Part shown: one piece after another, positions 12,281 through 60,405 of the stretch
How positions within the stretch are numbered: the stretch's first letter is position 1
Layout: each line of letters begins with the position of its first letter
IMG/VR virus record: IMGVR_UViG_3300008110_000009
Strand: one strand, 5' to 3'
Source of the DNA: a virus
Length of the DNA stretch: 64,000 nt
Position numbers and translations under genes: made by a program
The notes under the pieces: model-generated
Told to the model about the DNA's origin: nothing
Seen by the model: only the letters and a program-made list of their open reading frames with translations
Databases searched by the model: none

Positions 12281-15200
12281 TTATTTCCTTACGTACCTTA
12301 AATATAAAACATCCCCCTCAACTAACCTTAGTTTTCTCATTAAACTAGGACTAATAGCAAAGCCATATTGTGCATAAGTGGGATCATCTATACTAGGCCC
12401 ACTATGAACTGGGCCATCAAATTTACCGTCATTAGGATTGACGTTGGTCTCAAGTGTGTATGTTGCGTTTGATTTAGGTACATAAAAAATAGTATCCCAA
12501 CCAAAAAGGGTTTCTTTATTTGTGTTTGTTACATTCGCTCTTATAGAATAATATTCATATAACGGTCCAATGTCTGATAATTTAACAAGTTTATTAGGAT
12601 ATGCTTTCCATCCACTAACCATGGATAATTCTGCTGGTGACCCATTTTTAATTGGTATGTATTTTCCTGAGCCTAGAACACATACTCTAGATCTAAGCCA
12701 ATTCTCGTTGTTGTAGTTAATTGATTGAATATATTGTTCTGGTTTACCATTTATCTGTTGACCATTATATGGAAGTAGATCGCCAAATAAAAATCCGGAT
12801 GTTTTATTAATATTATTTAAATCTTCTCCTCTTGCTGGAGCTCCAGGATCAATTGTAAAAGTTTTATTATCTGTCGTTGTAATTGATTTAGCTGTTGTTT
12901 GAGCTTGATCCGATTGTTGTTTTTTCTTAACTGCAGCTGAAAGTATTCTACTAAATAGCGGCCTATAACTAGACATAAATGTACTTTCTAATGATGGTAA
13001 CGAACTATTAGAAATTCTAACACCAGTAAATGTTGTTTCAAATGTTCCTTGCTTAATTGCGTGATTAACGTCAAAAACAAGATATGTTCCAGCAAACATA
13101 GGAACATTAGCCAAATAAAAATACATGGTTGGCTGTATCATTGCATTACCCATACAAGTAACACTACATTGATACGAAGCTGTTTTATAAATGTCAAATA
13201 AACCTATATCAACAGCATGGCTACCGCCGCCACCTTGTGATCTTGCTAATCTTTCTTGTGCTAAAGCACTTTCTGTTGTATTCTTATATGTGCTTTGATC
13301 AAGAGAAATGTTTTTAAATATATTTTGTGCTTGATCACCAAAGTTTATTTCAAATGAAACTACTCTGTTTGATTTCGATAAATCAGCATCCATGAATATT
13401 TTTGGTTCAATCAATAACGGATTGTTGTTTGGATTTTTGATATCAAAACCATCGTTTTTAAATTTATACTCTTTACTAACTTTAGACATATCTAGATATT
13501 GAGATGTCTTGTTAATGTACTGAAGTATAATTTTAGGTGACGATTCTTGATAATCTACATCTAGGTGTGTGCCAAATAATGTACGCGCAATACTTTTAGA
13601 AGGTAGTATTTTTTTCTTATTAGTAGAATTAGTGCCATAGAAATTTACATAAGCCGGTAGCGGTCTCAAATCAAAGTTTGTTCCTTGAATCAATAATGAA
13701 ACTGCGCTATATAAATCTATTTTAATATTTTTTTCATCCGCTAATGAAATTAAACGTTCAAGACTTATGTATGCCTCATCTCCAATGTCTCTATTAGATC
13801 TATCTAAAAATAAAAATTCATCCATTAGACTTCTTTGGCCAATTGCGTTTCCAGAAATCCATTTATCATTAAAAGATTTAAAATATTGATATAAATCTAA
13901 TAATGTTGATTTTGCCTCATTAAATCCATGATAAATGGTGACCTTTCCTTCTAATGTTTCTTCTTTTAAAACTGAAAATTTTCTAGTAAGGTTATTTAAA
14001 AAGTCATTTAATCTATTTACCTGAGGACGGAATATATTAGCCTCTATATAAGTTTTAAAGTTAGTATAATTTGGTGAAAATCCAGGAGTATTAACAATTT
14101 GATCTTTGACCCATCCGGCATAAATTCTTGCTAATTCTCTATGTGCATATATATTTTCAGAGTTAACCTGAATATCGCTTATTTGAAAAAAGTGATGATA
14201 AAGGTTACTACTAATTCCGCTATATGTTGCACCAGTAATATTTTGACCAATGTATAATTCAATTAGTTTTTGATTTTGTGCTGTTAATTGAGAAACATTA
14301 TATTCATTTACACCATAAGTTTTTGATCTTCCGATATATCCACGAATAACATAATCATCAATTTGTCTAGGGTTACCAATTGTTAAAATATCTAAAGCTT
14401 TATTGTTTAAAAGTTGATTAGTTAAATCTTCTAGCTTTTTTGTTTGATTTTCCTTTATTTTTGTTTGGTATCCACTAGAATTAAAATCAATACCGTCTTT
14501 AGATATACTAGTAATTTCTTTCAAAAGACTTTGAAAAGAACTATAATCAATTCCCTCTTTTACTGTATCTAGATCGAGATCTAATGACGCAAAATTAATA
14601 AACATTTTTTCAAACTCATCTAATATGTCTGGGCTAAAAACGGCAATTAAATCCATCACGCGTTTTTTATTACCATTTAAAGTATATTCTCCAGAAATAT
14701 TTTCAAATCTTTCTCCATATGTTGGAAAGTACACTGTACTATATGATGGGTTGTTATTTAAATTATTTGAATCATAAATAAGTCTGAATGAATCTTGTGT
14801 TAGTGTATTGAAATTATTAATCAAGTCGGTTATTTGACCCCCGTTAAATGAAGGTAAAACAGTATAACGAGTATCCTTAGGTGAAAATATTGAATTATCA
14901 ACCAAACACGTAAAAGTATATCCGGATGTTGATGTTGGTTTGGATATAACAAACTTGGTCATTCCTGATGCTACTGCAGCAGAATATTGGTTTGCGGCAT
15001 TAGCAGCATTTGCACTTGTTTTTGTAAATCCAGATGGGTTATAAAAACTATACCCATTAACAATTTGTGAATAGATACCATGGTAGAATGGATACAACCC
15101 CACATAACTATTACTATTATATGTTGCGCCGGTTATTGTACTAGTCATTCCAGTTTGATCTGGTGTTGTATTTCCAGTTAAACTAAATGAAGCATTAGTT

Positions 15201-58662: not shown

Positions 58663-60405
58663 TTATCTTAAAGTATCCAAGCTGAATGTGTTCAAACCAC
58701 TTACGTTGATCACACCGAAGTAACGGTTGTTAACCATTTTCTTCGCGTATCTTGTCATGATACCTTTGATAGGTGTCATGTTAAATGGATTGTACATAGT
58801 TGGGGTTAATTGTAGAGGCACATATGGTGCATAAATATAACCAGCATCCAATAATGATTTACCTTTGTGACCGATCACAATCTTACCTGCTGGTAAATAT
58901 GGATCACGGTATACTTGGTAACGACCAGCTAATGAACCGATTTTTTCAATACCCATGTTGTATTGATCTTGCTCAGGAGCGGCATTTGATACGTGGAAAT
59001 ATTCTAAATCGTCGAATACTGCAGAAACTTCTGAAGATACTACGATCCAGTTAGCGCCACCTCTCAATGTTGTTTTATGGATTTGAGCAGAAATTTGGTT
59101 GATTTTAGTAACCAAAGTTTGGTTCCAGTCTTTCTGAGTGTAACCCATAAATGGTGTTCCACCAGTTGCACCGTACTTCCACTCATTGTAATCCCACTTA
59201 GCTGTCCAAGCAGCACCTTTTCTAAGGTCACGTAAAATTTCACGGTCAACCTCAGCAGCGATTTGCTCAGATAATAAAGCTGTTAATTCAGCTTCAGCAT
59301 CGATGTTATGGAACGCAGATACGTCCTGTGCTAATTCTGGAGACCAGCTAGCTCTTAATTTTCTTTCAGTAACTGATACTGTTACAGAAGCTAAGTCGAA
59401 AGAAACCTCACCGATTTCATCTTCGAATTCTAAAGTATCATACACTCTGTAAGTTACTTTGAAGTTAGCTAATGCTAAGTCGTTAGAACTGAAGTCAGCA
59501 GCAGCGAAACCGCTTGTTGCGCTATATGACTCTAAGTCAACGTTAAGGTAGATTTTACCTTCTTCGTCACAAATATCTTGGAATCTGTTAAGACCAGAAC
59601 CACCTTTTACACCATACTCAACGATACCTTTACCATATTTTTGAGTTACAATGTTAAAGTTTTTAACACCGTTGTTAGCAGTTGTGTTACCAGTAATTTC
59701 AACTTGTAGAGATGCTAAGAACTCTTCAGTATCCATTGCGTTACCGTTTACACCTACTAATTTACCTTGACCGTCTTTAGTGAAACCAGAAAGAACGATG
59801 ATTGCGCTAGATACAGATGCACCACTTAGAGCAGTTGCACTTGTAGAAGCAACACCACTAGAGAATGTTACGAACGCATGAGGGTTTACTTCACTTACAG
59901 TGAAAGATCCTTTTGAATAATCAAATAGACCTTGATCAGCTGCATCTGAAGACTCATAGAAACGATCGTAAAGACTTCTAGCACTTGTAGTACCTGTGTC
60001 ATAACCTAAGCTAGCAGCATCGTTGTTGCTTGGCATACCAAACGGTGCTAAGTGTGCGTTAGATTGTCTTTCTTGGATTTTAGGTACAAAGTAGAACAAT
60101 TTACCGATTGGTAAGTTCATAGCCTGTACAGAAACGATGTCATTCGCTAATAATTTAGAGAAAACACGGCGGATAATTGGGAATACCACTGTCTCGAAAG
60201 AACCTGAAGAGTCAGAAACTGCTGCTTCGTTGATTAAATAAGACGCTTGGTTTTCGTATAACTGCGCGATGTTATCTTTTTGATGGCCGTCAAGACCTTC
60301 TAGGAATCCTAAGTCTTCCCATTTTTTGATAGTATCTTCTTTGATAACACGAAGGTGCTTAAGACCGATGTTACCAACCATACCTGATTCTAATAATGCT
60401 CCCAT
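58663..60405 (-). CDS. Major capsid protein (T4 gp23-like)
   Basis: LYENQ, PIIRRV....A.DIVSVQAM..P.G..F, RKLRASWSPELAQD..AFH.IDAEAEL, YAPYVPL, P.KGIMTRY. Confidence 0.97.
   Translation of the reverse strand: MGALLESGMVGNIGLKHLRVIKEDTIKKWEDLGFLEGLDGHQKDNIAQLYENQASYLINEAAVSDSSGSFETVVFPIIRRVFSKLLANDIVSVQAMNLPIGKLFYFVPKIQERQSNAHLAPFGMPSNNDAASLGYDTGTTSARSLYDRFYESSDAADQGLFDYSKGSFTVSEVNPHAFVTFSSGVASTSATALSGASVSSAIIVLSGFTKDGQGKLVGVNGNAMDTEEFLASLQVEITGNTTANNGVKNFNIVTQKYGKGIVEYGVKGGSGLNRFQDICDEEGKIYLNVDLESYSATSGFAAADFSSNDLALANFKVTYRVYDTLEFEDEIGEVSFDLASVTVSVTERKLRASWSPELAQDVSAFHNIDAEAELTALLSEQIAAEVDREILRDLRKGAAWTAKWDYNEWKYGATGGTPFMGYTQKDWNQTLVTKINQISAQIHKTTLRGGANWIVVSSEVSAVFDDLEYFHVSNAAPEQDQYNMGIEKIGSLAGRYQVYRDPYLPAGKIVIGHKGKSLLDAGYIYAPYVPLQLTPTMYNPFNMTPIKGIMTRYAKKMVNNRYFGVINVSGLNTFSLDTLR

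Follow-up and report, generated by a model that had tools for sequence, protein, structure and literature searches.

A short Ser/Thr-Gly-x-Thr motif in outer virion proteins of a T4-like jumbo phage clade, and a three-glycosyltransferase island as its possible writer

Does a phage mark the outside of its particle with a short peptide signal that its own glycosyltransferases (GTs) read? The question is raised by 64,000 nucleotides of the IMG/VR virus record IMGVR_UViG_3300008110_000009 (the window; coordinates given without a prefix are positions within it), where an earlier note, made from the sequence alone, had counted the motif [ST]G-x-[ST] in tail and capsid proteins between positions 12281 and 60405, had seen three GT genes in the same stretch and had proposed a phage-specific O-glycosylation signal on the virion. 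What stands of this proposal is the excess of the motif, its specificity for outer virion proteins and the conservation of the three GTs; a simple link between motif and GTs is weakened by two phages described below, the P0142 phage and immuto, which disagree with it. From comparison of the sequences we conclude that selection keeps a short linear motif, hydrophobic-[Ser/Thr]-Gly-x-Thr-hydrophobic, in loops of outward-facing virion proteins. That the motif is a glycosylation tag written by a conserved transferase island is a tentative explanation to which we give a little less than an even chance, and in which we infer the reading by an enzyme, the identity of the enzymes and the order of their action.

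The record behind the window (G000) is 121,283 bp long at an estimated completeness of 36%, and derives from the genome of an uncultured phage of about 320 kb. It encodes a Gp23-type capsid protein, a T4-type sheath, gp6-, gp25- and gp32-like proteins, NrdAB and PolB (Pfam and PHROG matches), and by this gene content the phage is a distant T4-like myovirus of jumbo size. The nearest phages in GenBank, Flavobacterium phage immuto, Microcystis phage Mel-JY01 and the uncultured LR756508, show no more than about 30-40% identity in capsid and sheath, while close relatives are present in metagenomes as a large clade. Besides G000, the genomes compared were three relatives which bear the GT island, namely G001 (287 kb, 86% complete), G003 and G004 (a complete 321-kb genome with terminal repeats), and the distant T4, Mel-JY01, LR756508 (400 kb of its sequence) and immuto.

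The motif and its carrier proteins

The four virion proteins of the window in which the motif had been counted by hand are given below, with copies of [ST]G.[ST] and of its Thr-ending form [ST]G.T (the dot is any residue) against the numbers expected from shuffles of each protein.

12281..18103, minus strand: tail/baseplate protein of 1940 aa, called the hub in the earlier note; 14 [ST]G.[ST] against 2.9 (p<0.001), 11 [ST]G.T against 1.25
27057..29900, minus strand: tail sheath, 947 aa (Pfam Phage_sheath_1 and 1C, phrog_23); 13 [ST]G.[ST] against 2.8, 10 [ST]G.T against 1.6
39195..40664, minus strand: protein of 489 aa with a jelly roll of concanavalin-A-like, CBM40 or LamG type; 8 [ST]G.[ST] against 0.9, 7 [ST]G.T against 0.5
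58663..60405, minus strand: Gp23-type major capsid protein, 580 aa (Pfam Gp23, E 2e-72); 5 [ST]G.[ST] against 1.05 (p=0.002), 4 [ST]G.T against 0.46

The hand counts for these proteins, as well as those for NrdA (no copy) and PolB (one copy), were exact on recount. The four virion proteins are 5- to 9-fold enriched in [ST]G.[ST], and neither of the two enzymes is enriched. In the 1940-aa protein eight copies are packed at residues 953-1063, which corresponds to nucleotides 14917-15247; this protein has no match in Pfam, PHROG or the PDB, and its identity as a hub was not confirmed. The LamG-like fold guessed for the 489-aa protein, on the other hand, is borne out by its AlphaFold2 (AF2) model, which has a concanavalin-A-like/CBM40 jelly roll and for which Foldseek matches CBM40 and pentraxin. 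Seven of the ten [ST]G.T copies in the sheath fall within its variable insertion domain (residues ~120-300). Four of the five [ST]G.[ST] copies in the capsid protein (residues 137-238) lie in a variable N-terminal insertion ahead of the part that matches phrog_138, which begins at residue 323; this stretch is poorly covered by the relatives found with tblastn.

A record-wide comparison of structural with non-structural proteins, proposed in the earlier note as a check, left the excess in place after correction for composition and limited it to virion proteins. About 14 virion proteins are enriched, in a fibre and baseplate block upstream of the window and, inside it, the 1940-aa protein, the sheath, the 489-aa protein and the capsid protein. 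None of the replication and metabolism proteins of the record is enriched, and the inner or enclosed virion proteins (tube, tape measure, gp6-like and gp25-like) show no excess of the motif either.

The motif as originally claimed is correct for its Thr-ending form and too wide at its last position: Ser at +3 is not enriched, and for this reason the sharper motif is [ST]G.T. The virion set holds 141 copies of it where 34.0 are expected from per-protein shuffles (standard deviation 5.5, z = 19.4), that is about 4-fold, with single proteins reaching about 15-fold. In an unbiased scan of gapped tripeptides in the same set, SG.T (73 against 14.4 expected) and TG.T (68 against 19.9) were outranked only by Pro-Thr linkers and a Cys motif. 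The flanks are hydrophobic at position -1 in 69% and at position +4 in 57% of the 141 copies, and x is free, Pro being found there in two copies. Thr stands at +3 in 39% of cases after [ST]G and in 11% after other Gly residues of the virion set (odds ratio (OR) 4.96, p = 1.7e-25), whereas the same coupling in the non-virion proteins of this phage has an OR of 1.15. [ST]G.T thus behaves as one unit.

The near-variants of the motif are at chance in the virion set: z is 0.4 for [ST]G.S, -2.0 for [ST]A.T, -1.0 for [ST].G.T, 1.0 for [ST]G..T and 0.4 for the reversed motif. The same is true of N-x-S/T in virion proteins (210 copies against 213 expected, z = -0.3). The earlier note had set the motif apart from the Bacteroidota sequon D-[ST]-hydrophobic, and rightly so, since that sequon, searched as D-[ST]-[ALIVMT], is not enriched in virion proteins (51 against 68 expected, z = -2.3). 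Ahead of G.T there are fewer Asp and Asn than expected, and Val, Ile and Ser are not enriched at +3, which is unlike a generic preference for turns or strands.

The excess could in principle come from chance or composition, that is from a high content of Ser, Thr and Gly, from repeats or from a signal in the DNA alone. The virion proteins of this phage are indeed richer in these three residues than its enzymes are, and some of them hold repeats and Pro-Thr linkers. Against such an artefact stand the shuffles, which are made protein by protein, and the 2x2 coupling test, which is independent of composition and gives an OR of 5.1 after removal of the cadherin/SprB protein described below. Moreover, the 141 copies in the coding frame compare with 0-5 in the other five frames, and their codons are mixed, drawn from the two Ser families and from every Thr codon, so that the signal is one at the protein level; a DNA-level signal was rejected on the same grounds. 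Recent domain duplication was also rejected, as no copy of the motif falls in paralogous segments detectable by BLAST. We consider an artefact extremely improbable.

Three side observations concern the same genes and proteins. In the virion genes of the whole record, codons ending in T are favored for the Ser or Thr before the motif Gly (ACT, AGT and TCT up, ACA and TCA down), and GGA makes up 0.44 of the motif Gly codons against a background of 0.29. A virion protein of 1659 aa encoded upstream of the window (G000:C1:32867-37846) has six cadherin domains and six SprB repeats by Pfam, and its motif excess (21 against 7.4 expected) is lower than that of the orphan proteins; modules of these two kinds in a fibre protein suggest that the host may be one of the Bacteroidota. 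In a 406-aa protein, also upstream of the window (G000:C1:4078-5298), the motif lies inside a structural repeat made of tandem FTNLTG[TSG]TF units, and this protein is probably a fibre or a beta-helix.

Maintenance and location of the sites

Over 100 homologues were examined in the sheath and the 489-aa (lectin-fold) families. In the sheath family (119 homologues with at least 69% identity) a protein has on average 8.5 copies, where 1.5 would be expected. Where a sheath site is well occupied, its Ser/Thr, Gly and Thr are 80-95% conserved in surroundings of 46-69% identity, with x free to vary. Further sites are found in some members of the family and not in others, from which it follows that positions turn over. 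The family of the 489-aa protein behaves in the same manner, with a mean of 4.5 copies against 0.48 expected, a number that is kept, and positions that shift.

The trait extends to the larger relatives. G001 has 197 copies against 66 expected (OR 4.0), 35 of them in one 1402-aa protein where 4.5 are expected, and G004 has 139 against 77 (OR 1.7), with several proteins 4- to 11-fold enriched. Representatives of the wider sheath family, taken at 50% identity, are patchy: many are 5- to 8-fold enriched and some have no copy. To judge from these families and genomes, the motif trait is general within the clade and the number of sites is kept through turnover. It is not a generic property of T4-like virion proteins, a possibility which was rejected because there is no coupling in T4 (OR 1.19), Mel-JY01 (1.09) and LR756508 (1.19), whose sheaths have 0-3 copies and whose capsid proteins have 0-1. 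Immuto is intermediate, with a significant OR of 2.15 and a few tail proteins 3- to 4-fold enriched.

Where the sites lie in the folded proteins was assessed by secondary structure on AF2 models of the sheath (predicted local distance difference test score, pLDDT, 85) and of the 489-aa protein (pLDDT 80). The 36 recurrent family sites mapped on the two models have their Gly in coil at 29 and in a helix at one. The sites occur in inter-strand loops at varied distance from the strand ends and without a stereotyped position, the Thr being sometimes the first residue of a strand. In solved sheaths the variable insertion domain forms the outer layer. The claim that the motifs fall mainly in non-conserved insertions is therefore upheld by sequences and models alike, which place them in loops of variable domains of predicted outward-facing virion proteins.

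The glycosyltransferase island and its distribution

All three genes called as GTs in the earlier note (TRANSFERASES; 44221, 48628 and 49692) hold as such. They lie in an island with the following genes.

44221..45447, plus strand: divergent GT-B enzyme, GT4-like, 408 aa (Pfam Glyco_transf_4, E 1.6e-6; phrog_7162, E 1.6e-43)
48628..49695, plus strand: GT-B enzyme of the Agt/AmGGT subfamily (alpha-6-glucosyltransferase-like, GT4), 355 aa (no Pfam match; match to 8XSG)
49692..50477, plus strand: GT2 enzyme (GT-A fold), 261 aa (Pfam Glycos_transf_2, E 1e-7)
50477..51175, plus strand: putative late sigma factor, gp55-like (Pfam Sigma70_r2, E 5.9e-5, just under the cut-off; phrog_234, E 6.6e-4)
45738..48355, plus strand: context genes of the island, in order a 189-aa protein, a dUTPase/DCD-like protein, PhoH and a 213-aa protein (Pfam, sequence)
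45738..46307, plus strand: the 189-aa protein, which contains LSQIGK (no Pfam match)
47714..48355, plus strand: the 213-aa protein, with SIDGVL at its N-terminus (no Pfam match)

Two of the transferases were said to stand directly upstream of the late sigma factor, and they do so with overlapping stop and start codons, ATGA between the GT-B and GT2 genes and TAATG between the GT2 and sigma genes. The assignment of the 355-aa GT-B relies on 8XSG, the structure of AmGGT: phmmer matches the two with an E-value of 2.4e-7, and a profile of four sequences with 9.6e-19 over residues 43-335 of 352, the next structure following at 0.011. No solved relative of the GT4-like enzyme was found by sequence. 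The GT2 enzyme has an E-x-D-D-E stretch (E91, D93, D94 and E95) which is invariant in an alignment of four orthologues, and its profile matches in the PDB are generic GT2 enzymes, including GmaR at 0.004. The 189-aa and 213-aa proteins and the 355-aa GT-B are each full-length and conserved.

G001, G003 and the complete G004 keep the three transferases in synteny, and orthologues are also present in the P0142 phage. There is no homologue of the three in T4, Mel-JY01, LR756508 or immuto, and the 355-aa GT-B and the GT2 have no match among GenBank phages. G001 and G004 each carry several further genes of GT2 and GT1 families outside the island.

The earlier note had suggested that motif and transferases should be tested for co-occurrence, and the outcome is mixed. 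The coupling OR is 5.0, 4.0 and 1.7 in the island-bearing G000, G001 and G004, and 1.2, 1.1, 1.2 and 2.15 in T4, Mel-JY01, LR756508 and immuto, where the island is absent. The three island lineages are thus coupled and three of the four island-less genomes are not, but immuto and the P0142 phage do not fit. The latter, an ENA contig of 59 kb, has all three transferases, dut, phoH and the sigma gene in the same order and with catalytic columns intact. Its sheath contributes to the evidence weighed in the next section. The zero-motif sheath representatives P0141, P0162, P0165 and P0266 are on contigs too short to reach the island.

G002 was considered as a relative devoid of the transferases and rejected, as it is the same phage as G001 on a contig that stops about 4 kb before the island. 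G001 and G002, the IMG/VR records behind L089 and L092, have identical proteins in permuted order; they are one phage assembled with different ends, as would be consistent with a circularly permuted or terminally redundant genome.

Some mobile sequences were observed in the late regions of these phages. The P0142 phage, a relative with 24.7% GC, has an IS605 OrfB/TnpB-like gene and a resolvase/MerR gene inserted among late-region genes (L248:17428-19111). Small T5orf172/MUG113 (GIY-YIG-like) genes are situated near the sheath or late block in different relatives (41916-42569 in the window, L144:13045-13371 and L247:4563-4886), and these are probably mobile genes of the homing-endonuclease type.

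Explanations for the motif and comparison with known systems

The most likely reading of the motif is that it serves as a recognition tag for a phage-encoded enzyme which would act in the cytoplasm, before or during assembly of the particle. The leading candidate for the reaction is O-glycosylation of the motif Ser/Thr, or of its Thr, by the three transferases of the island. The first sugar would be attached by the GT2 or by the GT4-like enzyme, the Agt/AmGGT-like GT-B would extend it, and the outcome would be a sugar coat on the particle. The sequon may be gained and lost on surface loops, as N-glycan sites are on the spikes of animal viruses. In its widest form, in which a hydrophobic-[S/T]-G-x-T O-glycosylation sequon and a three-enzyme cytoplasmic pathway coat capsid, sheath, baseplate and fibres across a T4-like clade with genomes of about 300 kb, the proposal is possible and on balance doubtful.

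Several points weigh against glycosylation by the island. The association between motif and island is confounded by ancestry, as the four negative genomes are also the most distant and the positive lineages are three. The sheath of the P0142 phage is 43% identical over its full length and has no motif, and the 45 kb viewed of this contig, which do not include fibre genes, show no excess. The weight of this case is softened by the P0124 phage, in which a motif-poor sheath (2 copies against 1.0 expected) is found alongside an 893-aa protein with 17 copies against 2.8, so that a motif-free sheath is no proof of a motif-free virion. Immuto reaches its OR of 2.15 with no homologues of the three transferases, although it has a GT cluster of its own, and Mel-JY01 has several GTs and no motif, so that the mere presence of transferases does not predict the motif. 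The island is transcribed together with the gene for the late sigma factor, dut and phoH, an early or middle neighborhood of nucleotide metabolism and not a structural operon. In the 355-aa GT-B the first Glu of the EX7E motif is a Ser (STFGTFPLE). Finally, hydrophobic-S/T-G-x fits a type II beta-turn with Gly at i+2, and a structural role for the motif thus stays conceivable.

Such a role could be that of an unmodified loop motif, a turn or loop-to-strand solution which has spread in fast-evolving beta-rich domains, with the GTs being unrelated to it. The strand-flanked loop sites, several with Thr as the first strand residue, and the hydrophobic residues at -1 and +4 would be expected of it, and so would the copies in the tandem FTNLTGxTF repeat of one fibre protein and in cadherin and SprB repeats; the weak coupling in immuto, where the island is missing, and the motif-free sheath of the P0142 phage, where it is present, are also in accordance with this explanation. 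However, homologous sheaths and capsid proteins of T4, Mel-JY01, LR756508 and the P0142 phage fold without the motif, Asp or Asn before Gly and Val, Ile or Ser at +3 are not favored, and the motif is carried by folds that are unrelated to each other, namely the insertions of sheath and capsid protein, a jelly roll and fibres. Its surroundings in secondary structure vary as well, and sites turn over while their number is kept. We regard a purely structural motif as unlikely, if by no means far-fetched. A functional tag could also have another reader, for example another GT, a kinase or other transferase, a host enzyme, a decoration protein or a chaperone, with the island acting on DNA, a metabolite or an envelope glycan. 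The further GT2- and GT1-family genes in G001 and G004, the position of the island beside dut and phoH and ahead of the late sigma gene, and its persistence in the P0142 phage all speak for this, and hypermodification of DNA by phage GTs has been amply documented (bioRxiv 10.1101/2023.12.21.572611). Against it, the subfamily of the closest solved relative of the 355-aa GT-B is one linked to glucose on proteins, a different writer was not identified, and a hydroxymethylase-like ThyA protein and the Tet_JBP and T4 beta-glucosyltransferase families were not found in the complete relative, the Tet_JBP search being one that lacked a positive control. We rate another reader as rather improbable.

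The last of these points deserves some detail. The ThyA family is represented in the complete G004 by one gene, which scores 287 bits, as a true thymidylate synthase does (T4 gp42 scores 58 bits). The thymidylate synthase of G001 (G001:C1:204371-205501) has 391 aa, scores 297 bits and possesses insertions of about 100 residues in relation to the Pfam model together with canonical PCH and PFN motifs. The T4 beta-glucosyltransferase family (PF09198) is absent from G000, G001 and G004 (T4 control 1e-99), a search that did not cover the alpha-glucosyltransferase family. Tet_JBP gave no match, which shows little, since this search matched in no control genome either. T4-type DNA glucosylation as the target of the transferases is thus weakened and not supported by the gene content, which leaves room for other routes of hypermodification.

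Should the motif prove to be a sequon, phage virion glycosylation would have its first acceptor signal defined by sequence; our search of the literature for a described phage glycosylation sequon returned nothing relevant. A glycan shield would then be a core trait of an abundant environmental clade of jumbo phages, which may affect how stable the particle is, how it adsorbs and whether it evades grazers or the surface defences of the host, and the compact tag with its three-enzyme set could be of use where recombinant proteins are to be O-glycosylated in the cytoplasm. A four-residue motif that is confined to the outer virion proteins of one clade, has an OR of 5 and persists while its sites turn over remains, sequon or not, an uncommonly clear mark of selection acting on a short linear motif in structural proteins of phages.

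Four known systems can be compared with the one proposed here. The general O-glycosylation of Bacteroidota, the presumed host phylum, also uses an O-linked Ser/Thr sequon, but a different one which is not enriched here, and it is periplasmic, whereas virions are not assembled in the periplasm. The collagen-like glycoproteins of spore surfaces, BclA in Bacillus and BclA3/SgtA in Clostridioides difficile, are glycosylated on a Thr two residues after Gly. Their (GPT)n reads T-G-P-T and matches [ST]G.T, a parallel with the difference that the Thr of BclA-type proteins is part of collagen triple-helix repeats, while here the motif is isolated in loops and Pro at x is rare.

For mycobacteriophages we know of no four-residue internal loop motif placed on many proteins. 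They are a near parallel: in Che8 and Rita of cluster F1, virion O-glycosylation by phage GTs has been reported (Freeman et al. 2023, Cell Host Microbe 31:1216, as cited in PMC11256854). Phage-encoded glycosyltransferases, a glycan coat on the virion exterior (here as a proposal) and modification in the host cytoplasm would be common to both. The glycans of capsid proteins were measured there, whereas the system proposed here is predicted from sequence, and those mycobacteriophages are siphoviruses whereas the phage studied here is an uncultured T4-like myovirus of about 320 kb.

In the cytoplasmic N-glycosylation of Actinobacillus pleuropneumoniae, the alpha-6-glucosyltransferase ApAgt (GT4) extends glucose on adhesins, and AmGGT (8XSG) is its homologue (PMC12159676). 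The N-glycosyltransferase (NGT) of that system has no counterpart here, as searches whose controls matched found no member of the GT41 family (HMW1C-like NGT, PF13844) in G000, G001 or the complete G004. An N-x-S/T sequon and an NGT there thus differ from a candidate O-linked Ser/Thr acceptor, another motif and other initiating enzymes here. What the two would share is the sequon-directed, cytoplasmic glycosylation of folded surface proteins with a GT4 extender, and the candidate for the latter in this phage, the 355-aa GT-B, is by sequence a specific relative of AmGGT.

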